A stretch of 64,000 nt of DNA, taken from NCBI GenBank assembly GCA_964563085.1, contig CAZLVS010000002.1, forward strand, positions 64,091-128,090, in the 5' to 3' direction. Below the pieces are notes generated by a model. The model worked only from the letters and a program-made list of their open reading frames with translations, was not told the DNA's origin and ran no database searches. The translations under genes and the position numbers were made by a program. Source of the DNA: an uncultured Ignavibacteria bacterium. Its GTDB lineage: Bacteria; Zixibacteria; MSB-5A5; UM-FILTER-46-8. Positions 5,332 through 62,597 of this stretch are shown here, piece by piece (the stretch's first letter is position 1; each line of letters begins with the position of its first letter).

Positions 5332-8133
5332 ATGAAAAAGAGATTAATTTACCCCGCTGTCATAATTTGGGTTTGCGTCTTTGCGGCGATGCCGGCGAAC
5401 GCAAATTGGAGCAAACAGACTATTGATGGCAATTACGATGGGGCATTTATCGCCTATGCCGTCGACCTTGATTCCGACGGCGATATGGATGTTTTGGGAG
5501 CGGCTCGCGATGGCGATGAAATCACCTGGTGGGAAAATGACGGCAGCCAGAATTTCATCGAACGCATTATCGCTGAAAACTATCTCGGCGCCTATTCACT
5601 TGTTGTCGTCGACTTGGATATCGACGGCGATCTGGATATTGTAAGCGCCGCCTACGATGGGGACGAGATCACATGGTGGGAAAACGACGGTAACCAGAAT
5701 TTCGCCGAACGCCTAATCTCCGGTATTATTGACGGCCCCTCCGAACTCTTTGCTATCGACTTAGACAGTGATGGCGATATCGATGTGTTAGGAGCCGTCT
5801 ATGTGGGTGGTTTTATAACTTGGTGGGAAAATGACGGCAATCAGAACTTTGTCGAGCATCTCATCGATTTTACCTTCTTCGGCGCTCATCATGTCCATGC
5901 GGCCGACTTGGACGGCGACGGCGACCAGGATGTAATCGGGGCGGCTCGCATCAACAATGAAATCACCTGGTGGGAAAACGACGGCAACGGTAATTTTGGC
6001 CAACCTATTGTCATCGCCGCCTTTGAAAATGCGGTGGAAGCGTATGCCTATGATCTGGATAACGACGGCGATCTGGATATTTTGGGAGCCGGTCACGCTG
6101 TCGGCGTCAGCGGAATCGCTTGGTGGGAAAATGACGGCGCCCAGAATTTCACGGAACACACTATCGATCAGAACTTCAATGATCCCTTTCATGTCGCCGC
6201 CGTCGATTTTGACAACGATGGCGACCTGGATGTTCTGGCGGCTTCGAATGCCGATGATGAAATCGCTTGGTGGCAAAACGATGGAGACCAAACCTTCAGC
6301 AAGCAGGTTATCGACGGAGCTTTCAATGGAGCTAATTACGTTTGCGCCGCCGATATGGATGACGACGGCGATCTGGATGCCGTAGGAGCCGCTCGCTATG
6401 GGGATGAAATCGCCTGGTGGGAAAATGATATAGCGAGTTTCACCGAACATACACTCTATGAAAATTTCTGGGATTTCTGTGCGGCGGATGTCAACGGCGA
6501 CGGGCATGCCGATATCATAGGAGCCGATTCTATCGGCAATGAAATAATCCTGCTGCGTAATGATGGCAATGAGAATTTCAACTCCAGTCAAATCGAAGGC
6601 GGCTTTTTAGGCGCCAATACTGTGGACGTAGCGGATATCGATGGCGATGGGAATCTCGATATTCTGGGGGCGGCTTCCAGAGAAGGCGATGTGGCTTGGT
6701 GGAGGGGATTCGGTAATGGGACTTTCGGCGGTATGAACCTCATCGATGCGGTTTTCCATTGGGCGGGGGATGTAAAAGCGGTCGATCTGGACATTGATGG
6801 CGATATTGACATTCTGGGAGTTTCATCGGCCGCGGGCATTGGACTGCATTGGTGGGAAAATGACGGCAATCAGAATTTCACCGAACACACCATTGACTCA
6901 GACCAACTTGGCAAAAACCTCATTGTTGCAGATCTGGAAGACGATGCCGATTTGGATATCTTGATCTCCTGGGCGGATAATATATACTTGTGCGAAAATG
7001 ACGGCGCCGGTAATTTTCTCTGCTACCCCTTCTTCGGAGCGCCGGATGTCGAACGTATATATGCTATCGATTTAGACAATGATGGCGATACGGACGTACT
7101 GGATGCAGAACGCAACGGCTGTATCACTTGGTGGGAAAACCAGGGCAACATGGTTTTCGACCGCCATCACTGCGGCATCGGTATCGATTTCTTGGGGGCT
7201 TACGGCGTTCATGCGGGCGATATCGACAATGACGGCGACATAGATGTTTTGGGTTCCTCCGCTTCCCCGGATTTCGGCAAAGTTGCGTGGTTCGAGAATG
7301 ATGGAGACCAGAACTTTATCATGCACACTATCGATGGAGACTTCGATAACGGACGTGATGTTTATGCTATCGATGTTGACAATGATGGCGATTTGGATGT
7401 TTTGGGGTCTGCCACAGCCGGCAATCAAATGACTTGGTGGGAAAACGATCTTAATCCTCCCTGGTGCGATGTCAACATGATTCCCGACGATGATCCTGTT
7501 GTAGTTCCACCTGGGGGAAACTTCGGACTTACAGGAATCATCGGAAATCCAACTGAAGATCCGATTATAACTGATGTATGGGTCGGCGTGAAAAATCCGT
7601 TTGGTTCTCTTATAGTATTATATGAATTCTCGAACATTCCTCTTAATCCCGGGCAATATTTGGAATCGCACTTAAATCAATCCGTTCCTGTGAGCGCCCC
7701 ACCGGGAATCTACCAGTTCGAAGCTTATTGCGGTGATCTTAGTAGTTGGACAACCTGTGATTTCGCTTACTTCTCTTTCACGATAACGGGAGCGCGTTTA
7801 GCGGATGGCGCCACCGAATGGATTCTTGATGGAGGTTGGTTTGAGAATGAAACCGCGCCTGATATCCCGGCGGACTATACCCTGAATGAAGCCTATCCTA
7901 ATCCGTTTAACGCTACCACTACTATCAGCTACAATCTACCGATCGCGGGTAATGTTAAACTACAAGTTTACAACCTATTAGGTCAGAGAGTTGCCGTACT
8001 CGTGGATGGTAATTTAGATTCCGGGGAGCATACCGTAACATGGGATGCATCCGATTATTCCAGCGGTGTTTACTTCTACAAACTCATCGTTGGGGACAAA
8101 ATGTTTACAAAACGGATGACGCTGTTGAAATAA
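5332..8133 (+). CDS. secreted FG-GAP/VCBS-type repeat (beta-propeller) protein with conserved pre-CTD module and T9SS C-terminal sorting domain
   Basis: Signal peptide. About 14 repeats of DLDxDGDxDVLGAxxxGDEITWWENDGNQNF. Module MIPDDDPVVVPPGGNFGLTGIIGNP...YCGD...FTITGA. CTD AYPNPFNATTTISYNL...GVYFYKL...KRMTLLK. RBS AAAGGAG. Confidence 0.85.
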   Translation: MKKRLIYPAVIIWVCVFAAMPANANWSKQTIDGNYDGAFIAYAVDLDSDGDMDVLGAARDGDEITWWENDGSQNFIERIIAENYLGAYSLVVVDLDIDGDLDIVSAAYDGDEITWWENDGNQNFAERLISGIIDGPSELFAIDLDSDGDIDVLGAVYVGGFITWWENDGNQNFVEHLIDFTFFGAHHVHAADLDGDGDQDVIGAARINNEITWWENDGNGNFGQPIVIAAFENAVEAYAYDLDNDGDLDILGAGHAVGVSGIAWWENDGAQNFTEHTIDQNFNDPFHVAAVDFDNDGDLDVLAASNADDEIAWWQNDGDQTFSKQVIDGAFNGANYVCAADMDDDGDLDAVGAARYGDEIAWWENDIASFTEHTLYENFWDFCAADVNGDGHADIIGADSIGNEIILLRNDGNENFNSSQIEGGFLGANTVDVADIDGDGNLDILGAASREGDVAWWRGFGNGTFGGMNLIDAVFHWAGDVKAVDLDIDGDIDILGVSSAAGIGLHWWENDGNQNFTEHTIDSDQLGKNLIVADLEDDADLDILISWADNIYLCENDGAGNFLCYPFFGAPDVERIYAIDLDNDGDTDVLDAERNGCITWWENQGNMVFDRHHCGIGIDFLGAYGVHAGDIDNDGDIDVLGSSASPDFGKVAWFENDGDQNFIMHTIDGDFDNGRDVYAIDVDNDGDLDVLGSATAGNQMTWWENDLNPPWCDVNMIPDDDPVVVPPGGNFGLTGIIGNPTEDPIITDVWVGVKNPFGSLIVLYEFSNIPLNPGQYLESHLNQSVPVSAPPGIYQFEAYCGDLSSWTTCDFAYFSFTITGARLADGATEWILDGGWFENETAPDIPADYTLNEAYPNPFNATTTISYNLPIAGNVKLQVYNLLGQRVAVLVDGNLDSGEHTVTWDASDYSSGVYFYKLIVGDKMFTKRMTLLK

Positions 8134-8149
8134 TATAGCGTTATACTCC

Positions 8150-8450: not shown

Positions 8451-10697
8451 ATGAAAAAGAGACAAATTCTAATAGCAATGATACTTGCTATCCTGGTTTC
8501 CACAAGCGGGGCGGAGGTTATAAACATCCCCGAAGACTATGAAACGATTCAGGAAGGGATAGACGCCAGCACAGACGGCGACATGGTTTTAGTTGCACCG
8601 GAGACCTATAATGAAAACATAAACTTCCATGGCCGCAAAATAATCGTAGCATCATATCATTTCACCACCGGTGACACAGCTTTCATAACATCGACCATCA
8701 TTGACGGGGGAGAGAACGGTTCAGTAGTTCGATTTTGTAATTATGAAGATAGTCTGTCTGTTTTAACCGGCTTCACAATCCGGAATGGAAGCACAATGGG
8801 ATTAGGGGGAGGAATTCAGTGCTGGGAATCCGGTCCAAAAATCACGCACAATAAAATTGTCGATAATGCCGCTGGCGAAGGCGGTGGAATCGGTTGTGGA
8901 TGCTGTGCGTATGGCGGTAGTGGTCCGATAATTTCCGACAATGAAATCGCCAATAATTCCGCAAATGATGGAATGGGAGGGGGAATAAGCTGCAATCAAG
9001 TCTCAGGGGCGAAGATCACCAATAATGTTATCTCCTACAATACCGCTTCAACCGGCGGAGGAATTGGGTTTGATGATACCTCCGATGAATGGGTTAACAA
9101 CAATACGATCTGTTACAATTTGGCTGACGATGGCGGCGGGATTAGTTGCAGCAGGATTGGACAGGTTACTATTACCAACAATGAGATTCTCGGTAATTCC
9201 GCCGAAAGAGGCGGGGGGATTAAAATGTATGAGAATTCGGGGGGCTGGATTGACAGCAATACTATCATATATAACTCGACCGATGATGGAGGCGGCATAT
9301 ACTGTGTCGGTAATTCAACGCCTTCCATTGCTAACAATATTCTTGCCAGTAATACCGCCAACAATAAAGGCGGAGGCATTTACTGCTGGGGAGCCGAACC
9401 TTCTATTAGCGATAATTCCATCGAAAACAATTCGGCATATGTTGGCGGAGGAATCTACTGTTATGAAATTACCGAACTGATAATCGATAACAACAACATC
9501 GACGGCAACTCTGCCGATGAAACCGGAGGCGGTATACTCGCAGATAGCGGAACTCCTATCATTATCAACAACACTATTACCGGTAATTCCGGTTCTTCGG
9601 GGAAAGGGATAGCATGTGTTAATTCAGATGCCTCAATAAGAAATAACCTTATCACCCTCAATCAGGAATTCGGGCATGGCGGAGGTCTTTTCTGTTCCCA
9701 TAGCGATCCCCAAGTTGATCACAATACCATCACCGATAATTCAGCCGGCAGAGGCGGCGGTGTTTACTGTTACAATTCCAATCCAATAATAACAAACACT
9801 ATTCTGTGGGGGAATTCGGCTACTTATGGTTCTGAAATCTATACAGTTGATAGCGATCCGAGCGTAACTTATTCGGACGTGGAAGGCGGATGGACAGGAG
9901 AAGGAAATATTAACGCAGATCCTTTGTTCTGCGATCCGCAGCTTCCGGATTTTTGGCTTGCAGAGAATTCTCCATGTGTTGGAAGCGGTCAAAATGGCGA
10001 GGATATAGGGGCTTATGGGATCGGATGCGAGGCGATTGGCATTTGCTGTGATATCGACATGATTCCAGATGATGATCCTGTCATTGTTCCTCCTGGCGGT
10101 TCATTTGGTTTGACAGGCATTATAGGCAATCCAACTGATGATCCGATTACAACCGACGTATGGGTAGGCGTAATATACATGGGGAGTTTCTACCAGCTCT
10201 GGAATTTCCCGAACATTCAGCTTAATTCCGATCAGTATCTGAATTCTCATCTTAATCAAAACGTTCCGGGCAATGCTCCGGTAGGGACTTATGACTATGT
10301 CGCTTATTGCGGCGACAAACCTGAAGTCTGCGACTCAGCAAAGTTTCAATTCACAGTAAGCGGAGCTCGTATTAACGGCGGCGCCGAAGAATGGAACCTT
10401 CAGGGAGGATGGAAGGAGGATGAACTTGCTCCGACCGAATGCATACTCGATAGTAACTATCCAAATCCCTTTAACCTGAAAACTACGATCACCTACGAGC
10501 TGCCGAAAGCATGTGAAATTTCTCTTACCATCTATAATTTGATGGGTCAGGAACTGGCTACGTTGGTGGAGGGCGTACAGGACGCAGGTAAACATCAAGT
10601 GCAATGGGATGCCGCTAATCGGTCCAGCGGAGTTTATTTCTATAAATTGGAGGTTGGTAATAGAGTATTCACAAGGCGGATGACATTGTTAAAGTAG
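8451..10697 (+). CDS. secreted right-handed parallel beta-helix repeat protein with conserved pre-CTD module and T9SS C-terminal sorting domain
   Basis: Signal peptide. About 20 repeats of NNxIxxNSAxxGGGIYC. Module MIPDDDPVIVPPGGSFGLTGIIGNP. CTD NYPNPFNLKTTITYEL...GVYFYKL...RRMTLLK. The 5' leader, RBS and MKKR start are near-identical to the preceding gene. Confidence 0.85.
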   Translation: MKKRQILIAMILAILVSTSGAEVINIPEDYETIQEGIDASTDGDMVLVAPETYNENINFHGRKIIVASYHFTTGDTAFITSTIIDGGENGSVVRFCNYEDSLSVLTGFTIRNGSTMGLGGGIQCWESGPKITHNKIVDNAAGEGGGIGCGCCAYGGSGPIISDNEIANNSANDGMGGGISCNQVSGAKITNNVISYNTASTGGGIGFDDTSDEWVNNNTICYNLADDGGGISCSRIGQVTITNNEILGNSAERGGGIKMYENSGGWIDSNTIIYNSTDDGGGIYCVGNSTPSIANNILASNTANNKGGGIYCWGAEPSISDNSIENNSAYVGGGIYCYEITELIIDNNNIDGNSADETGGGILADSGTPIIINNTITGNSGSSGKGIACVNSDASIRNNLITLNQEFGHGGGLFCSHSDPQVDHNTITDNSAGRGGGVYCYNSNPIITNTILWGNSATYGSEIYTVDSDPSVTYSDVEGGWTGEGNINADPLFCDPQLPDFWLAENSPCVGSGQNGEDIGAYGIGCEAIGICCDIDMIPDDDPVIVPPGGSFGLTGIIGNPTDDPITTDVWVGVIYMGSFYQLWNFPNIQLNSDQYLNSHLNQNVPGNAPVGTYDYVAYCGDKPEVCDSAKFQFTVSGARINGGAEEWNLQGGWKEDELAPTECILDSNYPNPFNLKTTITYELPKACEISLTIYNLMGQELATLVEGVQDAGKHQVQWDAANRSSGVYFYKLEVGNRVFTRRMTLLK

Positions 10698-10704
10698 CTG
10701 CCAA

Positions 10705-26064: not shown

Positions 26065-26069
26065 ATTAG

Positions 26070-26235
26070 CCTGTATTATTCACCAATTTGGTTATTGGTT
26101 GCGGAAGCCTTGCGCTTCCGGCGTTTCTTTGAAATACTCAATTTCAATCTGCAAACGATCTACCTCTATTGAACCCCCGAAGGACAAACCTTCGGCTACG
26201 GATTATTCGGTTTTATGAATTCTCCGGGTTAGTTG
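26070..26235 (+). repeat. MITE-like intergenic repeat, family A copy 1
   Basis: CCTGTATTATTCACCAATTT...GCGGAAGCCTTGCGCTTCCGG...CCCGAAGGACAAACCTTCGG...TTTATGAATTCTCCGGGTTAG, shared with 39060, 46228, 59020 and 62435. Confidence 0.7.
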
Positions 26236-28252: not shown

Positions 28253-28310
28253 CCTCGGTGTTCTCTCTTACGGCGGTGTTCTCTCTTACGGCGGTGTTCT
28301 ATCCTACAAC
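28253..28310. repeat. 18-bp tandem repeat x3 (GGTGTTCTCTCTTACGGC)
   Basis: Three consecutive copies, the third slightly diverged. Confidence 0.7.
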
Positions 28311-28314
28311 CGTC

Positions 28315-28500
28315 GGCGTTGGAGCGCTGACCGGGGATCCGTTATAAATCGGTGTCGGGTTTCTCGCTCATTTCATTCGCTCGGAACCCGACCTGCAGCT
28401 CGCCGTGTCCCGATGAAGTTGGGGCAATGACAGAAACAGAATTCATTGCGAACCGGAGGCTTGCCGAGGGCTCGGCAATCTTTTATTCTCTCGCAACATT
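28315..28500. repeat. GC-rich REP-like intergenic repeat cluster (family B)
   Basis: GCGCTGACCG...AAATCGGTGTCGGGTTT...CATTCGCTCGGAACCCGACCTGC shared with 29800-29905. GAATTCATTGCGAACCGGAGGCTTGCCGAGGGCTCGGCAATCT shared with 31785-31830. Confidence 0.6.
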
Positions 28501-28547
28501 CCAAATTGTGAATTTGAGAAGCACGGATGAGTATCAGTCCTACGGCG

Positions 28548-29704: not shown

Positions 29705-29759
29705 AACACAATAGAAATCATCGAGCGGGCAGGGGCTTGCAATCCGCTACCACGACCCT

Positions 29760-29905
29760 TATTTCCGGTATTGCAGTAGAACAAGAGATTGCCGCGCCCT
29801 CGGAAACCGCGCGGCGTCAGCGCTGGCGCGCTGACCGACGGAGGATTGAAAAACGGTGTCGGGTTTTCATTCGCTACGCTCACTCGGAACCCGACCTGCT
29901 TCACT
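29760..29905. repeat. GC-rich REP-like intergenic repeat (family B)
   Basis: GTCAGCGCTGGCGCGCTGACCGACGGAGGATTGAAAAACGGTGTCGGGTTTTCATTCGCTACGCTCACTCGGAACCCGACCTGC. Confidence 0.6.
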
Positions 29906-31739: not shown

Positions 31740-31942
31740 CTTCGTAGTCCCGCGCTTCGCGGGACTCCTTGCAATGACGGGAAAATAATTCATTGCGAGC
31801 CCGAGGCTTGCCGAGGGCGCGGCAATCTCCTATCCTCATGCAATTCCCCAAATGAAGCTTGTGAGACAGATTGTCAGCCCTCTGGGCTGACGCAGCCGTA
31901 CCGTCAGCGCATGAGCGCTGACCGGCGGATTCAGGTTTCGAC
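31740..31942. repeat. GC-rich REP-like intergenic repeat (family B) plus GTCGAAACC hairpins
   Basis: AATTCATTGCGAGCCCGAGGCTTGCCGAGGGCGCGGCAATCT. GTCAGCGCATGAGCGCTGACCG hairpin. AGGTCGAAACC-TTTATG-GTTTCGAC palindrome at 31631-31668. Confidence 0.6.
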
Positions 31943-32886: not shown

Positions 32887-35673
32887 ATGAAGCTACTTAC
32901 ACAATCCTTAACCATTTCTTTCATCTGTCTTTTCTTGATTCTGGCGATCAATCCACCAGCAAATAGCAGCACAATATATGTCGAGGGAGATGTCTGGGGG
33001 CAATGGAGCGCGGATACGGTGTTAGTTACCGATTCTATTCGTGTTCCCACTGATAGCAATCTTATTATCGATCCGGGAACCAAAGTCCTTTTCTGGGCGC
33101 ATGATAAATTCGTGGTGGATAGCGCTGCTACGTTGATTGCGGTTGGAACGGAAATGGATTCCATCCGGTTCGACGAATATTTCTCGGGGAATAAATGGCA
33201 TGGGATAAGATTTCTCAATGCCTCAGATTCGTGCATATTGGAATATTGTTGCCTAATACACGGCAAGGCTTCAGGTATCGGCGATGACGCTTATGGCGGC
33301 GCCATCTTTTGCAGTCATTCCGATATTACCATTAAAAATTGCCTTATTGATAGATGCTCCGCAAAAGAACGCGGAGGCGGCATTTCTTGTATACAGTCTA
33401 GCCCTATGATATCCGACAACATTATCATTAGGAACAACATCCTTAGAAACGAAGCCAATGACGGCGGGGGCGGGATTTATTGTGGAATTAATTCCAATCC
33501 CTCCATTATGGGGAACACGATTGGTGCAAATGAAACCGGCGGAGACAGCTATGGTGGCGGCATTTATTGTAGCAATTCCAGTCCGATAATCGATGGAAAT
33601 AACATTACTGGAAATAGAGGATACAACGGCGGTGGCGGCATTTGTTGCGAGGAAAATTCAAATCCAACGATAAATGATAATGTTATCAGTGAGAACTGGA
33701 CCGTATATTTTCAAGGTGGCGGCGGAGTGTACTGTATCAACTCCAGCCCCTCAATTACCGGAAATACCATCAGCGGAAACTGGACTGATGCCTATTATGG
33801 TTATGGAGGCGGAATCTCCTGCCAAAGTAACTCCAGTCCTACAATTACCGGCAACACCGTTGATAATAATTCAGCATCGAATTATGGAGGCGGAATCTCC
33901 TGCAGGGCTGACTCCCACCCCATAATTAGTGGCAACATCATAAATAGCAATTCTGTAGTGAATTACAGCGGTGGTGGTATTTACTGCTATAATTCCTGTC
34001 CCACAATCAGCGATAACACCCTTGACGGGAATAGCGCGAACCGGGATGGCGGAGGAATTTATTGCGACATTGGGTCCAACGCAAATATTGACGGGAATTA
34101 CTTCGTTGCGAATTCAGCGGCTGATTATGGCGGCGGGATTCGGACTTCGGGTAGTTCGCCGGTAATAAGTAACAATTTCATCACCTCCAATATTGCCGAT
34201 GACGGCGGAGGGATATCCGTAAGTTCGTATCATGGAATTGTTAACTATAATACTATTTCAGATAATACCGCCGGATCTAACGGTGGTGGAATTCATATTA
34301 CTAATTCCGGTTCTAATCTTATTTTGTTGAATAATTCAGTTATCGAAAACATAGCCGGTTCTGACGGTGGTGGGATTTACCTGTCCGCGTCCGATCCCCG
34401 GATCATCAATTCAATAATATTTTTAAATACTGCGACCAACGGTCCCCAAATCTGGCCCACTAACGGTTCCGATCCGGATGTGACCTATTCCTGTATTGAA
34501 GGCTACTGGCCCGGCGAGGGCAACATATTCGATGATCCCTTATTCCGCGATCCCGATAACGGGGATTATCACCTCCAGGATAATATCAACTGCGGCGATA
34601 CGCTTTACTCTCCCTGTATCGATGCCGGGGATCCCGCAATACTCGATGCGACACTGAGCTGTGAATGGGGACTGGGCGAGAGAATTAGCGACATCGGCGC
34701 CTACGGTGGCGGCGACAGGACTCCTACTATCAGCAATATGAGCCGCAATCCGGAGAATCCCGTCGAGGGCGAAGAGTGCGAGATCTCGGCAATTATAATT
34801 GATGAAACCGGATGGATCGACCATGCTGGTCTATATGCGGACATGGGTTCAGGTTTCTACCTATTTCCGATGAGTAATGTTGCGGATTCGTTTTTCGCCA
34901 CCATCCCCGGACTGCCCAAAGACACTACGGTCTTCTACTATATAACAGCGGTGGACGAAATCGGAGACTCCACCGTTAGCGACACTCTCTCATACACTGT
35001 CCTGCCCGCATTATGCTGCGACGTGGACATGGAAACCGATAGTTATCCGATCAATGTTCCTCCCGGCGGCTCCTTCGGACTCACCGGCATTATCGGAAAC
35101 CCTTCGTTGGAACCGATTATTACAGATGTCTGGGTAGGAGTAAGAAACGGCAGCGCTTTTATACAGCTTTACGACTTTCGGAATATTATTCTCAATGCTG
35201 GTCAGTATGTGTCGGCTCATTTAGTACAGAACGTACCGGTCTCTGCCGATCCCGGAGTTTATGGATACGCCGCCTTTTGCGGGGACTTCGATGGGTGGTC
35301 GGTATGCGATTCCGCTTCATTTGAATTCACCATAACCGGAGCGCCATTAGCGCGCGGCGCAATGGAATGGACGCTGGAAGGAGGCTGGGGAGGTGTTGCC
35401 GAAAAGCCGACAGATTACGCCCTTATAGCTAATTACCCCAATCCATTCAACGCCGCGACCACTATCGTTTATCAGCTTCCCGAATCCGGAGATGTAAATC
35501 TGAGCGTTTATAATATCGCCGGACAACGAGTTGAGACCTTGGTGAGCGGTTTGATGGAAACGGGGAATCACAGAGCTAATTGGGATGCGTCTAATTACTC
35601 CAGCGGTATATATTTCTACAAACTTACCGCCGGGGAGAAAGTGTTCACCAGGCGGATGACATTATTGAAATAG
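32887..35673 (+). CDS. secreted parallel beta-helix repeat protein with conserved pre-CTD module and T9SS sorting domain
   Basis: Signal peptide. Many NxIxGNxAxxGGGIYC repeats. Module DMETDSYPINVPPGGSFGLTGIIGNP. CTD NYPNPFNAATTIVYQL...GIYFYKL...RRMTLLK. Confidence 0.85.
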   Translation: MKLLTQSLTISFICLFLILAINPPANSSTIYVEGDVWGQWSADTVLVTDSIRVPTDSNLIIDPGTKVLFWAHDKFVVDSAATLIAVGTEMDSIRFDEYFSGNKWHGIRFLNASDSCILEYCCLIHGKASGIGDDAYGGAIFCSHSDITIKNCLIDRCSAKERGGGISCIQSSPMISDNIIIRNNILRNEANDGGGGIYCGINSNPSIMGNTIGANETGGDSYGGGIYCSNSSPIIDGNNITGNRGYNGGGGICCEENSNPTINDNVISENWTVYFQGGGGVYCINSSPSITGNTISGNWTDAYYGYGGGISCQSNSSPTITGNTVDNNSASNYGGGISCRADSHPIISGNIINSNSVVNYSGGGIYCYNSCPTISDNTLDGNSANRDGGGIYCDIGSNANIDGNYFVANSAADYGGGIRTSGSSPVISNNFITSNIADDGGGISVSSYHGIVNYNTISDNTAGSNGGGIHITNSGSNLILLNNSVIENIAGSDGGGIYLSASDPRIINSIIFLNTATNGPQIWPTNGSDPDVTYSCIEGYWPGEGNIFDDPLFRDPDNGDYHLQDNINCGDTLYSPCIDAGDPAILDATLSCEWGLGERISDIGAYGGGDRTPTISNMSRNPENPVEGEECEISAIIIDETGWIDHAGLYADMGSGFYLFPMSNVADSFFATIPGLPKDTTVFYYITAVDEIGDSTVSDTLSYTVLPALCCDVDMETDSYPINVPPGGSFGLTGIIGNPSLEPIITDVWVGVRNGSAFIQLYDFRNIILNAGQYVSAHLVQNVPVSADPGVYGYAAFCGDFDGWSVCDSASFEFTITGAPLARGAMEWTLEGGWGGVAEKPTDYALIANYPNPFNAATTIVYQLPESGDVNLSVYNIAGQRVETLVSGLMETGNHRANWDASNYSSGIYFYKLTAGEKVFTRRMTLLK

Positions 35674-35812
35674 AATTTAACAAGCTCTTTGCGCTATCGG
35701 GCGCCGCAACCCGATAGCGCCTCATACTAAGATATTGTATAGTTAGGGCGCTACTCATTTCGGATAAGGGCGAACGAATGTATCCGCCATCCACGACCAT
35801 GCTTCAAGCGTT

Positions 35813-37519: not shown

Positions 37520-38785
37520 ATGAGGATTCCCATTTTCTGTATTATAGCATTGGCCGTCTTTCTGTTAGCACATGCAAATTCGCTTACTACCCAAGCAGAT
37601 AATATTACTACGATTGAACGTATGACCGCGCACCGGCAAGAGACGGGAGGGGAACTACTAATTAGCCCCGAAGATATGATCGCTTATGATAACGCTCCAA
37701 TACGTTATTATCCTAATTGGACTGAATCCGCAATTATGTGGAGCGTTCGCTTCACGCCGGAACGATTTTGTTCCCTGAAATATATTCAGATAGCGACCTA
37801 TGAGGGCGCGGGAAACGCTGCGATTCATATATGGGAGGATGACGGGAGCGGCTGTCCGGGCAATGATATAATATCGCCTTTTACCATAACGTTATCAGGA
37901 GATCTCTCCTATCAGACCATCCATATAAATCCCCCCGTAGACATTGGAAACGCAGATTTCCATGCAGGTTTCGAATACTTAAATACTCCGCCTCCATACG
38001 CGACTACAGACGGCGACGGAGCGACCGAGGAACGAAGCAAGGTGTATTTTCCGGTAGACGAGTGGTCAAGTTTGCCCCACGACCTCAATATTCGAGCATT
38101 CGTAACCTATTATGAAAGAAGCATTTTAATTTCTATGTTTCCGCATAATCCTCCGATTGTTGTTCCCGCAGGAGGCTCCTTTCGGTACACCGGAGGATTG
38201 ATAAACCAGTTAAGTCAACCCACTGAAATCGATATTTGGGTGATGATTGAAGCGCCCGATTACGAGATGTATGGACCGGTTAAGCTGTATCAAGCGATTC
38301 CGATTGCGCCGCTGGATACCATTGTAGTGCATAGAATAACTCAGCAGGTTCCGGCATTCGCCCCTCCCGGATTCTATAATTATTATGCTTTCTGCGGCGA
38401 TTATCCTGCGCTGGAGGCGGCTTCCGATTCATTCAGGTTTGCGGTGACATCACCTGCCCGAGGCAAAGGTGATAATTGGGAATTGTCCGATTGGTTTGAT
38501 GATAGTGATAGTAATATACCGGATGAAATCACGCTTGACGCCAATTACCCCAATCCGTTTAATGCAAAGACCAAAATCAGCTTCACTCTGCCGGAATCAG
38601 GCAACATAAGCATGGAAGTATGTAATTTAATGGGACAGAAAGTCGCCGCCCTGGTGAACGGACATAAAGAAGCCGGCCACCATACCATAACCTGGGATGC
38701 ATCGAATCAATCCAGCGGGATTTATTTCTACAAGCTAATCGTTGGCGACAAAGTCTTCACGAAACGGATGACATTGCTGAAGTAA
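37520..38785 (+). CDS. secreted protein with conserved pre-CTD module and T9SS sorting domain
   Basis: Signal peptide. Module FPHNPPIVVPAGGSFRYTGGL (diverged). CTD NYPNPFNAKTKISFTL...GIYFYKL...KRMTLLK. Confidence 0.8.
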   Translation: MRIPIFCIIALAVFLLAHANSLTTQADNITTIERMTAHRQETGGELLISPEDMIAYDNAPIRYYPNWTESAIMWSVRFTPERFCSLKYIQIATYEGAGNAAIHIWEDDGSGCPGNDIISPFTITLSGDLSYQTIHINPPVDIGNADFHAGFEYLNTPPPYATTDGDGATEERSKVYFPVDEWSSLPHDLNIRAFVTYYERSILISMFPHNPPIVVPAGGSFRYTGGLINQLSQPTEIDIWVMIEAPDYEMYGPVKLYQAIPIAPLDTIVVHRITQQVPAFAPPGFYNYYAFCGDYPALEAASDSFRFAVTSPARGKGDNWELSDWFDDSDSNIPDEITLDANYPNPFNAKTKISFTLPESGNISMEVCNLMGQKVAALVNGHKEAGHHTITWDASNQSSGIYFYKLIVGDKVFTKRMTLLK

Positions 38786-39059
38786 TTTTATTCATAACGT
38801 AGCCCTCGCGGCTACCCTGGTGTTAATAAAGTGCAGGGGTCCCGATTTTATCGGGATCCCTACGGCGCTTTGAAAGATGCGGTCAGGTGCGGCGACACAA
38901 CTGCCTAAAAAACCCAAAAATCCCCTTGCCTTTCTGTATGTAACCCTGTATCTTTCTTATGAAGGCTGCCTCCATTAAATTTGTGGCGCTATCGCGACCA
39001 CGTGGTTAATTTATTTTCCTTAATTTAAAATGGCAGCCTTCTCTTTTTTACTCTTTTAT

Positions 39060-39232
39060 ACCTTAGTATCTACATTTGCTATCACCGGTAGCGGAAGCCT
39101 TGCGCTTCCGGCGTTTCTTTGAGATACTCAATTCCAATCTGTCAACGAGCTGCTTTTATTAGCCTCCCGAAGGACAAGCCTTCGGCTGCGGATTAATAGG
39201 TTTTATGAATTATCCGGGCTAAGCATACCGCC
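39060..39232 (+). repeat. MITE-like intergenic repeat, family A copy 2
   Basis: GGTAGCGGAAGCCTTGCGCTTCCGGCGTTTCTTTGAGATAC...CCCGAAGGACAAGCCTTCGG...TTTATGAATTATCCGGGCTAAG. Confidence 0.7.
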
Positions 39233-39312: not shown

Positions 39313-40302
39313 TCACGCCCTGGGGAATGCTTTCTTATAGGTCTTGCTTATGTGCGAAGATGAAACCTGAGTATATTTCTGAGTCACGCTCAAGGATGAA
39401 TGCCCTAACATCTCCTGTATCGCCCGTAAATCGGCGCCCCTGTCCAGCATGTGTGTGGCGAAACTATGCCTTAATGTATGCGGCGAAATCGCAGGATTAT
39501 TGGAGACTCTTTTCAAGGAGTTTTTGATCCTCTCTCTCATATTCCGCGCGGATATTCGCTTTCCAAACTTATTAAGAAAAAGATACTGATTATCCTCCTG
39601 TTTTTCCATCGGTAAGACCAACTCCCGGTACTCCAGATAAACCTTGATTGCATTTACCGCATATTCACCGATAGGTACTATCCTGTCCTTTTCTCCCTTT
39701 CCGCGTACGCGAACCACCGCGGAATTGAAATCTGTATCAAATATCCTTATCCCCAAAAGTTCGGACAATCTCAGACCGCTGGAATAGAACAACTCCAGCG
39801 CAGCCCTATCCCGCATGCCGGAGAAATTGCCGGCAAAAGCCTGACCAAAAAGCTCTCTTATCTGCTCTTCCGATAATATCGGGGGCAATTTACGCTTCTT
39901 ACGCATCCTGAATGTACCCGACACCGGATTTGTATCTATATGGTTCTCCTTGACCAGGTAATTGAAAAAATGCTTCAATGCAGCAAGTTTTCTTTCCAGA
40001 GACGATTCCATCAATCCCGCTGATATCAATGCCGAAAGGAAATTCCGTATATCCAGACGTTTCACTTTTTTCCAGACACCTACCGGAACATTCGGTTGCG
40101 CCTTCGACTCCTCACCCCCGTGTAATCGTGCGGTTCGGTCGCCGTACCCGGCCGCTTTATTTCCTTGAGCGAAATATTTATAAAACTGGGTTATATCAGA
40201 CATATATGCGGAAATCGTATGCATAGAATACCCTTTCTGATTCTCAAGATAGGAGGCAAATGCCTTTAAACGAGGGATATAACTAAATTCTGACTGATTC
40301 AA
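39313..40302 (-). CDS. xerC: tyrosine site-specific recombinase XerC/XerD family
   Basis: C-terminal catalytic RHSFATHMLDRGADLRAIQEMLGHSSLSVTQKYTQV. Confidence 0.8.
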   Translation of the reverse strand: MNQSEFSYIPRLKAFASYLENQKGYSMHTISAYMSDITQFYKYFAQGNKAAGYGDRTARLHGGEESKAQPNVPVGVWKKVKRLDIRNFLSALISAGLMESSLERKLAALKHFFNYLVKENHIDTNPVSGTFRMRKKRKLPPILSEEQIRELFGQAFAGNFSGMRDRAALELFYSSGLRLSELLGIRIFDTDFNSAVVRVRGKGEKDRIVPIGEYAVNAIKVYLEYRELVLPMEKQEDNQYLFLNKFGKRISARNMRERIKNSLKRVSNNPAISPHTLRHSFATHMLDRGADLRAIQEMLGHSSLSVTQKYTQVSSSHISKTYKKAFPRA

Positions 40303-46227: not shown

Positions 46228-46345
46228 AAACTGACCTAACCCGAATTATTCACGGAAATGCGGATATGATCTACTTCTATTGAACTCCCGAAGGACAAGC
46301 CTTCGGCTGTGAATAAATTCTTTTCACGAATTATCCGGGCTAAAT
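46228..46345 (+). repeat. MITE-like repeat family A copy 3 (internally truncated; lacks first hairpin)
   Basis: ...GATCTACTTCTATTGAACTCCCGAAGGACAAGCCTTCGGCTGTGAATAAATTCTTTTCACGAATTATCCGGGCTAAA. The 3' end overlaps the stop codon (CTA, 46340-46342) of the minus-strand gene. Confidence 0.65.
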
Positions 46346-47245
46346 TTCGAGATTCTCGATAGAGGGAGAATCAAACCCATTTCTTTGAAGATATTTCAGA
46401 ATCTCCACCGAAACTTCCTCGATTGCGCGTCGACTGACATCAATCACGGGACAACCTATTTCAGCAAAGAGTTCACGGCAAAACCTGAGCTCCTTCTGAA
46501 TCTGCTTTATATCGGCGTATTCGTCGAGGCAAGTGTATTTATACCGGTCACCGGATAACACCTTGGCTCTTTCTTCTCTAACCCGCAGAAGTATGTCGGG
46601 TTTCATAAGCAGTCCGAAAACAGCGCCATGCTCCACGTTTTGCAGCCTCTTCAATAATGAATCCCGCATTGCGGGGTCGGGAACTATCGGTATATTAGCC
46701 GCCTTTAATCCAATGTTACAGGCGAGATAAACACTGATGGGTGTTTTGCAGGTGCGGGATAAGCCGATTAAAACCACATCCGCTTCGTTTATGTAATTCC
46801 CCATGCCATCATCATGTTCAACGGTGAATCCGATTGCATCCACTTTACGATAATACCTGTCATCCACAATTTGCAGTATTCCGGGTTGATAATCCGGATG
46901 AACGCCGAGAAATTTAGACATGGTTTTCAACATCGGTTCCAGTACGTTCAAATGAAGCAATTCCCTCTCCATCAGCGCATTATGTGCATGAGCCCGAAGA
47001 TCGTCGGATATGATCGACACCACCACCAGATAATCATCGCCGATCTCCTTTAAAGCGGCGTCGAAGGTTTGGCGATCCCGCACTTCCTGATAAACTTTTA
47101 CCAGCTTATACCTGACCTCCTGAGTATTGTATTGATAAAGGACGGCATCCATCAGCCTTTTTGCGGTTTTGCCGGTGCCATCGGAAATTATTATTATCTT
47201 TTTTGTTTCATCCGCCAATTTTTCTAATCCCGATAATTTTTGCAA
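46340..47245 (-). CDS. PEP synthetase / pyruvate-phosphate dikinase regulatory protein (bifunctional kinase-pyrophosphorylase, DUF299)
   Basis: GLSRTCKTPISVYLA P-loop-like motif. 301 aa. Confidence 0.8.
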   Translation of the reverse strand: MQKLSGLEKLADETKKIIIISDGTGKTAKRLMDAVLYQYNTQEVRYKLVKVYQEVRDRQTFDAALKEIGDDYLVVVSIISDDLRAHAHNALMERELLHLNVLEPMLKTMSKFLGVHPDYQPGILQIVDDRYYRKVDAIGFTVEHDDGMGNYINEADVVLIGLSRTCKTPISVYLACNIGLKAANIPIVPDPAMRDSLLKRLQNVEHGAVFGLLMKPDILLRVREERAKVLSGDRYKYTCLDEYADIKQIQKELRFCRELFAEIGCPVIDVSRRAIEEVSVEILKYLQRNGFDSPSIENLEI

Positions 47246-50489: not shown

Positions 50490-50700
50490 AGCCAGAGGCT
50501 GGTTAACGCTCTCCCGAATCTATCGGGTACAAAAACCTGATGCGGTGTCAGACGACCTCGTCCGCCAACTAAACAAGGTATACGGGGACGCATGACTTGC
50601 ACGACGCGGCGTCAAACGTCCCCACCCGAACCCTATTCTATCGGGCCGCAAGGTGCGTCCGGTAGTGCGGGGCGCCGTTGTAAGGGCAAACGCTGAGAAA
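50490..50700. repeat. GC-rich structured intergenic element (family C repeat)
   Basis: CCCGAATCTATCGGG and CCCGAACCCTATTCTATCGGG palindromic motifs. 50630-50700 is the reverse complement of 58925-58985. Confidence 0.55.
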
Positions 50701-50871
50701 TGTATCATCATATATTTTTGATTTATACAACGAATGTTTACACCATTTGATCCACAATTCGTGAATGATAGAAATGGCGGGTCAAAAGTAATGTGCGTCA
50801 GTGATATGGATAATACACTGAGAAATTAGCTCTATCTGCATAAATCAGCCAGCTTAGAATCGGGAGATAAA

Positions 50872-58924: not shown

Positions 58925-58985
58925 AGACATGCTTAAGCGCTCTCTTTTACAACGGCGAACCACCCTACCGGACGCAACTTGCGGT
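58925..58985. repeat. family C repeat copy (inverted relative to 50630-50700)
   Basis: TTACAACGGCGAACCACCCTACCGGACGCAACTTGCGGTCCGATAGAATCGGG. Confidence 0.55.
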
Positions 58986-59019
58986 CCGATAGAATCGGGA
59001 TCGCGCTTGGTTAACCTGT

Positions 59020-59178
59020 ATTATTCACGAATTTAGTTATCGGTGGAGGAAGCCTTGCGCTTCCGGCGTTTTTTGAAATCCTCTATTCCAATCCGTAAAT
59101 GATCTACTTCTATCAAACTCCCAAAGGACATGTCTTCGGCTGCGGATTAACAGTCTTTATGAATTATCCGGGCTAAGG
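59020..59178 (+). repeat. MITE-like intergenic repeat, family A copy 4
   Basis: CCTGTATTATTCACGAATTT...GGAAGCCTTGCGCTTCCGG...CCCAAAGGACATGTCTTCGG...TTTATGAATTATCCGGGCTAAG. Confidence 0.7.
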
Positions 59179-59571
59179 CGGGTATGTCTTCTGCTCCAAT
59201 AACGAAATTTATGAATAATACAGACCAGGGTTGGCTGTGCAGATAATTTACCACAAACTGCATAATATTGCATGGCATTCATCAAAAATTTGGTTAAGTA
59301 TTCGCAAAATTTCTGCCATCGTAGCTGCAATCTATTATCTGTTTAAACCTTATACAGATTAACTCAATCCGAATTTAAGTACACAGGCATCGGCATAAAA
59401 ATTGCTTAATTCTAACATTGGTAGTGATTTTATCTCTATAATTATATTCGAATATGACCATTTATACCGTTGGTAGTTGGTATTAGTGGTTTGGACTGGT
59501 AGTAGGTTTTCCTAACCAGATACATTTATATACTTGAGTTTTAACAGTTCATATTAAACAAAGGAGTGACC

Positions 59572-62327: not shown

Positions 62328-62434
62328 TTAAAAACCTCCGGAGGGGTATTATATATTTACTCCTTTTATACATTATAAATTATCGGAGGAAAGGTGAGAT
62401 TTATTGAGTATCTTTTTTGTGCAAATTTAACCTG

Positions 62435-62597
62435 TATTATTCATAAATTTCGGCGCCGGTAGCGGAAGCCTTGTGCTTCCGGCATTTCTTTGGAATCATC
62501 AATTACAGTTTGTGAAGGATCTACTTCTATTGAACTCCCGAAGGACAAGCCTTCGGCTGCGGATGAATGGGTTTTATGAATAGTCCGGGTTAGTTTG
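62435..62597 (+). repeat. MITE-like intergenic repeat, family A copy 5
   Basis: CCTGTATTATTCATAAATTT...GGAAGCCTTGTGCTTCCGG...CCCGAAGGACAAGCCTTCGG...TTTATGAATAGTCCGGGTTAG. Terminal inverted repeat TATTCATAAA / TTTATGAATA. Confidence 0.7.

Follow-up and report, generated by a model that had tools for sequence, protein, structure and literature searches.

Short intergenic repeats of two Zixibacteria genomes as probable IS1380-type miniature inverted-repeat transposable elements

Insertion sequences (ISs) of the IS1380 family are typically delimited by ends starting with CC and flanked by target-site duplications of 4-5 bp. The Correia elements of Neisseria, ~100-160 bp in size and non-coding, carry terminal inverted repeats of ~20-26 bp, duplicate a TA target and number from dozens to hundreds of copies, situated between genes and often near gene ends; they give rise to long-hairpin transcripts and include internally deleted variants. 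Here, we investigated a 64 kb stretch of DNA from an uncultured Zixibacteria bacterium (contig CAZLVS010000002.1; the whole stretch is referred to as the window), in which a preliminary description had noticed five copies of a short intergenic repeat and read them as a mobile miniature element. This reading is sustained by further copies, by a 4-bp target-site duplication and by IS1380-family elements sharing the same terminus. The repeats are very probably ~159-bp non-autonomous MITEs (miniature inverted-repeat transposable elements) of the IS1380 type, residing in two related Zixibacteria chromosomes, those of the window's organism and of the metagenome-assembled genome (MAG) Bin_336 (GCA_014730175.1). 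No description of Zixibacteria MITEs or of the mobile-element biology of this phylum was found in the literature searched.

In respect to the IS1380 family, the MITE shares the CC-starting ends with ISEcp1, IS1247, and ISPme1 as well as with the metagenomic elements described below (loci L183, L105, L086, L106, L187, and L188). At both ends of the elements in L183 and L105 and at the left end of the one in L086, 20 bp are identical to the MITE terminus. These relatives duplicate 4 bp at TTAA or CTAG, whereas the target of the MITE is NTAN; for IS1247 a 5-bp repeat is recorded (PMC3281130, Table 2). In contrast to the IS1380 elements, the MITE is ten times shorter, has no transposase gene and possesses an unrelated interior, consisting of two hairpins of the repetitive extragenic palindromic (REP) type and a variable center. 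The likeness to Correia elements comprises size, lack of coding capacity, terminal repeats, a short TA-containing target, intergenic copies, internal deletion, and the long-hairpin fold. The two differ in termini, host phylum and transposase family, and the duplication of the MITE is NTAN (4 bp) instead of TA; a function as promoter or IHF site stands on the Correia side only in this comparison. A third likeness is found in eukaryotic piggyBac and its MITEs, which show a 4-bp TTAA-type duplication and CC(C) ends like the Zixibacteria MITE, and IS1380 transposases serve as prokaryotic outgroup of piggyBac transposases (PMC10813416). The MITE differs from them by its bacterial host and by a relaxed target (TTAG, CTAA, TTAA, ATAG, and others) compared with the strict TTAA of piggyBac, and any relationship would be expected at the superfamily level only.

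The five repeats of the window are genuine copies of a small non-coding mobile element. All of them lie on the + strand in intergenic regions, as motif counts and alignment agree in confirming, and they are accompanied by one solo terminal fragment on the - strand:

26070-26228, + strand: copy 1, full length (159 bp; nhmmer 144 bits, model positions 1-159); flanked by a 4-bp duplication, TTAG at 26066-26069 and TTAG at 26229-26232
39060-39218, + strand: copy 2 (nhmmer 134 bits, model positions 5-159); flanks TTAT and CTAA, mismatched
46240-46339, + strand: copy 3, 100 bp, both termini and hairpin 2 retained; flanked by a 4-bp duplication, CTAA at 46236-46239 and CTAA at 46340-46343
59015-59172, + strand: copy 4, full length (158 bp; nhmmer 136 bits); flanks TTAA at 59011-59014 and CTAA at 59173-59176, agreeing at 3/4 positions
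59191-59224, - strand: solo 5' terminal fragment (TCTGTATTATTCATAAATTTCGTTATTGGAGCAG) from another copy in opposite orientation
62431-62589, + strand: copy 5, full length (159 bp; nhmmer 152 bits); flanks TTAA at 62427-62430 and TTAG at 62590-62593, agreeing at 3/4 positions

Compared with the expectation from shuffling, the constituent motifs were strongly overrepresented in the window: 5 matches against 0.00 expected for hairpin 2 (CCGAAGGACAAGCCTTCGG), 4 against 0.19 for hairpin 1, 5 against 0.08 for the 3' block and 6 against 0.35 for the 5' block. The copies had originally been placed with a length of ~165 bp; while they proved to be real, their boundaries were slightly corrected, resulting in an element of ~159 bp. 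Their alignments reproduce the proposed order of 5' block, hairpin 1, variable center, hairpin 2, and 3' block, and the imperfect terminal inverted repeat is not only present but runs to the extreme ends (CCTGTATTATTCA... / ...TGAATTATCCGGG). Copy 3, correctly described as internally deleted at 46.2 kb, lost hairpin 1 and the center, while copy 2 has a decayed 5' terminal repeat (ACCTTAGTATCTACATTTGC) with both hairpins and the 3' terminal repeat intact. The solo 5' fragment begins 14 nt past the right-hand CTAA flank of copy 4. Overlooked so far were the extension of the repeat to the extreme ends, the 4-bp duplication, the solo 5' end, and the palindromic character of the whole element. Among each other, the window copies are 77-83% identical, and all MITE copies compared span 77-95% identity; this divergence identifies them as real loci and not as assembly duplicates. 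Furthermore, copies 3, 4, and 5 were found at the ends of independent Logan contigs from the same population. An artefact of the assembly graph, named beforehand as an outcome that would have spoken against the element, is thus not the cause, the repeat itself rather being what breaks assemblies.

To access the copy number beyond the window, the hairpin 2 pattern was scanned against one genome per species. It was found in at least 73 stretches; among the matches listed, more than 55 belong to Bin_336 and three to another Zixibacteria MAG, and the remaining ones are single and evidently chance matches in unrelated taxa. An nhmmer profile built from the window copies retrieved 41 full-length copies, 37 of them in Bin_336 loci, together with many partial ones. 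Thus, the expectation of further copies is borne out by at least 37 full copies in this sister genome. The full element measures 157-159 bp, with variants ranging from 100 to 223 bp. As initially stated, it is intergenic and non-coding: all 44 full-length copies checked (44/44) are intergenic, and no copy has an overlap exceeding 30 nt with an open reading frame (ORF) of 110 codons or longer. The alignment of 41 copies sets the element boundaries at CCYGKATTATTCAY... / ...RTGAATTATMCGGG. The terminal inverted repeat of ~20 bp is imperfect, with CCYGKATTATTCAYRAATTT at the 5' end and its reverse complement at the 3' end, and the 14 end positions are 79% complementary across 35 copies. Inside the 5' terminus lies the GC-rich hairpin 1 (GTAG-CGGAAGC-CTTGC-GCTTCCG), inside the 3' terminus the likewise GC-rich hairpin 2 (CCGAAGG-ACAAG-CCTTCGG-CTAC). 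Both are near mirror images, hairpin 1 resembling the reverse complement of hairpin 2, and the variable center between them defines subfamilies. Weak reverse-strand nhmmer matches cover the entire length of the model, which characterizes the element as one long imperfect palindrome.

Two minor variations affect the loop of hairpin 1. Some copies contain a 19-nt palindromic insert (TTTATGCGCCTCTGGCGAA), which is found in both orientations:

L022 4814-4990, L061 3481-3658, and L074 4030-4207: copies with the insert in one orientation
L053 4969-5144, L037 1462-1638, and L060 1399-1533: copies with the insert in the other orientation

In another copy (L011, 4194-4352), the 5-nt loop itself is flipped, reading GCAAG in place of CTTGC. 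The insert in both orientations and the flipped loop suggest hairpin or cruciform events on DNA level.

The duplication of the target site, which had been recommended for inspection, is statistically clear. Identical 4-bp flanks were detected in 24/41 full copies, compared with a mean of 6.2 and a maximum of 15 in 5000 shuffles, in which the right flanks were permuted among the copies. The element therefore generates a 4-bp target-site duplication at NTAN, with TTAG, CTAA, and TTAA being the commonest flanks. Particularly informative are matching pairs of non-consensus flanks, which were also observed (CCAA/CCAA, TCAG/TCAG, CTAT/CTAT, ATAA/ATAA, and ATAG/ATAG). The flanks are direct and not inverted repeats and, consequently, are located outside the terminal repeat, since TTAG would otherwise pair with CTAA. 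In locus L025, one copy is inserted at ATAA within the terminus of another copy and is accompanied by an ATAA duplication, representing a nested insertion.

The link to the IS1380 family was established by the terminus. Scanning metagenomes for the 20-bp terminus, with an IUPAC filter against the canonical continuation into hairpin 1, yielded 105 loci. In these (L080-L184, contigs of JGI and ENA metagenomes), the terminus CCYGKATTATTCATAAATTT is mostly preceded by TTAA, TTAG, or CTAA and caps many differing short interiors, with one recurrent family continuing as TTTTGCCACAAAGCCACTAAGTCACAAAG. One and the same end thus caps many MITE-like families. Four of the terminus-bearing loci hold an adjoining transposase gene:

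L183, 1231-2898: element of 1668 bp with perfect 20-bp terminal repeats (CCYGKATTATTCATAAATTT)
L105, position 212 of the reverse complement: element of 1665 bp with CCYGKATTATTCATAAATTT at both ends, flanks TTAA/TTAA
L086: element with the 20-mer as left end and a diverged copy of it as right end, flanks TTAA/TTAA
L106: element with the 20-mer at the single end present, its transposase gene truncated where the contig stops

The transposases of L183 and L105 comprise 454 amino acids and score 352 and 380 bits against the NCBIfam model NF033539 ("IS1380 family transposase", cutoff 180), in line with matches to Pfam PF13701 with E-values of 1e-129 and 1e-134. The enzymes encoded by L086 and L106 were recognized only via tblastn against the proteins of L183 and L105. 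Mutually, the four transposases are just 34-43% identical, yet the terminus is unchanged. More distant IS1380 elements on long contigs (L187 and L188) carry CCCGGATAATTCACGAATGAG ends and CTAG/CTAG duplications, and the window copies 1, 3, and 4 carry the ATTCAC variant of this type of terminus. CC ends in combination with a 4-bp duplication are found in the MITE and likewise in L105, L086, L187, and L188.

Several observations accompany these loci. L105 and L183 are each situated at the center of a palindrome, their flanks being mutually reverse complementary (e.g., ...GGCCCTTTTAA / TTAAAAGGGCC...), and L183 adjoins a gene (502-1155, - strand) resembling REP-associated tyrosine transposases (RAYTs). 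In two viral IMG/VR contigs (L185 at ~1892-1911 and L186 at 7966-7985), the 20-nt terminus continues into seemingly unrelated sequence, and no element is obvious there.

Ends, duplication, and family link to IS1380 are direct observations; the most likely route of transposition can be outlined from them. An IS1380-family DDE transposase supplied in trans would bind both ~20-bp termini and excise or copy the element at its CC ends. Integration would occur via a 4-bp staggered cut at NTAN, with YTAR preferred (TTAG, CTAA, and TTAA), and repair of the staggered cut would leave the 4-bp direct duplication.

A number of results weigh against assigning the repeats to the IS1380 type. No IS1380-family transposase was found in the window (Pfam scans, 20 ORFs) or in ~0.5 Mb of Bin_336 loci (tblastn). 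A profile search returned thousands of IS1380-family proteins, with none from Zixibacteria among that minority of the best 120 for which a source was named. Because the Zixibacteria sequence searched yielded no transposase, we infer mobilization in these genomes, and the identity of the resident enzyme, from the shared termini. The search for a parental IS, as had been proposed, led to metagenomic IS1380 elements with the same terminus; the Zixibacteria sequence searched contributed none. What the relatives with a transposase gene have in common with the MITE is confined to the ~20-bp terminus and does not extend to the subterminal hairpins, and to regard these relatives as the direct parents of the MITE as a deletion derivative would go beyond what these sequences demonstrate. 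No clean empty site, with a single 4-mer between the two flanks, was recovered at the orthologous regions, the ones at the copy-4 and copy-5 sites being otherwise rearranged; an exact-match metagenome scan for the predicted empty site of copy 1 gave no match. Finally, a perfect duplication is present in only 1/4 full-length copies of the window, in addition to the deleted copy 3. The flanks of the other three mismatch at one or two positions, as expected of old copies.

Alternative sources of the mobilizing enzyme were considered. The ORFs next to solo 3' ends (L044, L057, L033, and L007) encode Rho, proteins with a tail of the type IX secretion system (T9SS) and tetratricopeptide repeat (TPR) proteins, and were rejected as parental transposase. 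The tyrosine recombinase at 39313-40302 beside copy 2 resembles housekeeping enzymes of the Xer type, and nothing ties it to the element. Plasmid-borne IS1380-family relatives from Pseudanabaena and Rhizobium (~40% amino-acid identity) have no recognizable matching termini. In terms of other families, the IS5 group duplicates YTAR and has GG ends. IS701 members generate target duplications of exactly 4 bp (PMC2266710), with the end consensus ---YACT-Y--YR (PMC2266710, Table 1). Both this consensus and the GG ends of the IS5 group are unlike the MITE termini CCYGKATTATTCA, and the transposases found with these termini belong to the IS1380 family, so that IS701 and IS5 were discarded as source families.

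Comparison with Bin_336 allowed an evaluation of the history of the family. A flanking protein of the window is 95% identical to one of this MAG, whose contig WJIR01000076.1 is syntenic with the window at 42.4-57.2 kb (85-87% nucleotide identity, blastn); gene-order synteny (locus L077) extends to about 64 kb of the window. The site orthologous to copy 3 hosts a full copy in opposite orientation, flanked by CTAT/CTAT compared with CTAA/CTAA in the window. The flanks agree within each genome and differ between them, and two independent insertions into an already differing site explain this more parsimoniously than a single ancestral insertion with a later inversion and two parallel mutations. 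The intergenic region orthologous to copy 5 harbors no copy, the one orthologous to copy 4 contains a copy of a different subfamily, and an extra decayed copy resides in Bin_336 between two convergent genes which are separated by only 17 nt in the window. Taken over these 4 orthologous sites, differences in occupancy, orientation, or subfamily show that the family has been active since the split of the two lineages.

The surroundings of the copies are mixed, in agreement with the gene contexts reported initially. Taking the element as reference, 13 cases show convergent flanking genes, 12 have both genes on the opposite strand, 8 show divergent genes, and 7 have both genes on the strand of the element. 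Within the window, copy 2 sits between convergent genes for a T9SS-tail protein and the above-mentioned tyrosine recombinase, copy 4 has a + strand gene on either side, and copy 5 is bordered by two - strand genes, one encoding a 641-aa protein and one encoding NusB. In 7/44 copies, the stop codon of a gene (considering genes of at least 100 codons) is placed inside the 4-bp duplication:

46340-46343 of the window: right duplication of copy 3, holding the stop codon of a kinase/pyrophosphorylase (PpsR-like) gene at 46340-47245, - strand
L036, L003, L015, L010, L055, and L076: one further copy each with a stop codon within the duplication

As NTAN includes TAA or TAG on either strand, an insertion there keeps the stop codon and the reading frame. 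Copy 1 starts 5 nt upstream of the start codon of a PAP2-family gene (26064, - strand); the promoter of this gene must consequently lie within or beyond the element, its upstream region having been displaced. Hairpin 1 together with a T-rich tract resembles a weak terminator. A selected terminator function was rejected, since the upstream gene shares the strand of the element in 20 cases and lies opposite to it in another 20, without any bias. Any effects on neighboring genes are incidental.

The shared strand of the five copies had raised the question of a transcribed small-RNA family, i.e., small regulatory RNA genes or cis-acting structured RNAs expressed from the + strand, with the hairpins and the terminal stem being functional. 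In addition to the common orientation, the stable rod-like single hairpin fold (-59 kcal/mol, z = -4.5) and the terminator-like score of hairpin 1 with its T-rich tract would be in favor of such RNAs. However, the fold is stable because the element is an inverted repeat, and a 4-bp duplication with transposon-type termini is not expected of RNA genes. Rfam 15 revealed no match in the window at the gathering threshold, and with E-values up to 10 the sole match near copy 4 was at chance level (11 bits). The covariation analysis of the hairpins that had been suggested uncovered no compensatory change in either of them: across 35 copies, 0/14 pairs changed on both sides, the covariation score was at or below that of shuffles, and 87.8% of the cells were paired compared with 88.7% in column shuffles. 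Mutations therefore break pairs without compensation, as expected of decaying copies of mobile DNA. Promoter-like sites were not enriched (8 found, 9.6 expected), and the arrangement of flanking genes (13, 12, 8, and 7, as given above) displays no orientation bias. Copies in the sister genome occur on either strand (in the Bin_336 loci, 33 are - and 28 are +), and the copy-3 orthologue is inverted. For 5/5 copies on one strand, the two-sided chance is 1/16, and a chance event is the best reading of this window pattern. In view of this, a small-RNA family is highly improbable. Even less credible, to the point of being negligible, is an element derived from IS200/IS605, whose single-strand transposition with a replication-linked orientation would explain the shared strand and to which the co-oriented window copies and the subterminal hairpins near both ends could be related. 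IS200/IS605-type elements are not known to carry terminal inverted repeats or to duplicate their target, whereas the MITE shows both features; moreover, the termini match IS1380-family elements, neighboring copies in Bin_336 form 6 pairs of same and 4 of opposite orientation, and the copy at the orthologous copy-3 site is inverted.

Closer to the interior of the element is the relation to REP sequences, bacterial interspersed mosaic elements (BIMEs) and REPINs (REP doublets forming hairpins), which are mobilized by RAYTs and likewise show an inverted doublet of GTAG plus palindrome; the recurrence of hairpin 2 in mosaic palindrome arrays is a further likeness. The REP signature is found in both hairpins, as GTAG-CGGAAGCCTTGCGCTTCCG and, inverted, as CCGAAGGACAAGCCTTCGG-CTAC. 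The hairpin 2 module (CCCGAAGGACAAGCCTTCGGCTAC) occurs on its own inside Bin_336 arrays of short GC-rich palindromes, several of which end with CTAC:

L008 ~1487-1518, L012 ~855-873, L014 3595-3613 and 3944-3962, L016 1166-1184, and L021 27-45: hairpin 2 module outside the MITE in Bin_336
L054 4420-4438, L059 405-423, and L063 3569-3587 and 4201-4219: hairpin 2 module outside the MITE in Bin_336, continued

Together with a RAYT-like ORF in the other Zixibacteria MAG (L017 5942-6625, - strand, 227 aa), this could point to a REP/REPIN doublet spread by a RAYT rather than by a DDE transposase. Nevertheless, we rate this as very unlikely. REP/REPIN elements and other substrates of HUH transposases are not known to leave target-site duplications, whereas a 4-bp duplication is clear in the MITE family in combination with DDE-type termini. 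The conserved unit furthermore runs ~30 bp past each hairpin to CC termini identical with IS1380-family ends, and hairpin 1 is never found outside the MITE (34/34 occurrences confined to its copies). A combination of both systems, in which a REPIN-like doublet of REP hairpins was captured between IS1380-type termini, would accommodate hairpin 2 in BIME-like arrays, the loops and the 19-nt insert in both orientations, and the position of L105 and L183 at palindrome centers, one of them adjoining a RAYT gene. We regard such a chimera as unlikely; if it existed, two enzyme systems without relation to each other could act on the 159-bp unit or on its hairpin modules, moving or reshuffling them. 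The REP-like features leave room for an exchange of modules between a REP-like system and the MITE, without altering the conclusion that the repeats are IS1380-type MITEs. Separately, the hairpin 2-like module of the second Zixibacteria MAG (L017, L034, and L072) displays stem variation which is compensated (CCGAGGG...CCCTCGG). The RAYT-like ORF in L017 of this MAG contains HUH and tyrosine motifs (HFHILV and YIHYNPV), and the same MAG carries the hairpin 2-like palindromes.

The family of IS1380-type MITEs described here represents an ordinary MITE type in a little-studied phylum and not a family of small-RNA genes. The uncultured phylum Zixibacteria thereby gains a defined high-copy MITE family with termini, target, and a likely transposase family. 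Its knowledge helps annotation and explains breaks in metagenome assemblies, as seen by Logan contigs ending within copies, and the copies can be used as markers of strain-level variation. The known working of such elements is left unchanged by our findings. As many short elements of sediment metagenomes, unrelated to each other, end with the same terminus, the IS1380 clade bearing it may generate MITEs prolifically, at a TTAA-like target that recalls piggyBac.

Apart from the MITE, the window contains housekeeping genes and proteins bearing T9SS sorting tails. Similar ~240-nt gene 3' ends were noted, being alike because they encode T9SS C-terminal sorting domains and thus representing ordinary coding repeats, and a 933-aa ORF consists in part of tandem repeats. 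The other intergenic repeat families, among them a ~96-nt repeat in both orientations, make the intergenic regions of the window look like repeat hotspots:

28424-28519, 31771-31866, and 29751-29806: intergenic repeats
28309-28334, 29813-29838, and 31900-31925: intergenic repeats
38790-38900: intergenic repeat
50627-50703 and 58927-59003: 77-nt inverted pair with one arm adjoining copy 4
79-319, 7894-8134, 10458-10698, 35434-35674, and 38546-38786: similar ~240-nt gene 3' ends
5332-8133: 933-aa ORF with 147-nt tandem coding repeats (motifs like D-x-D-G-D and WWEND)

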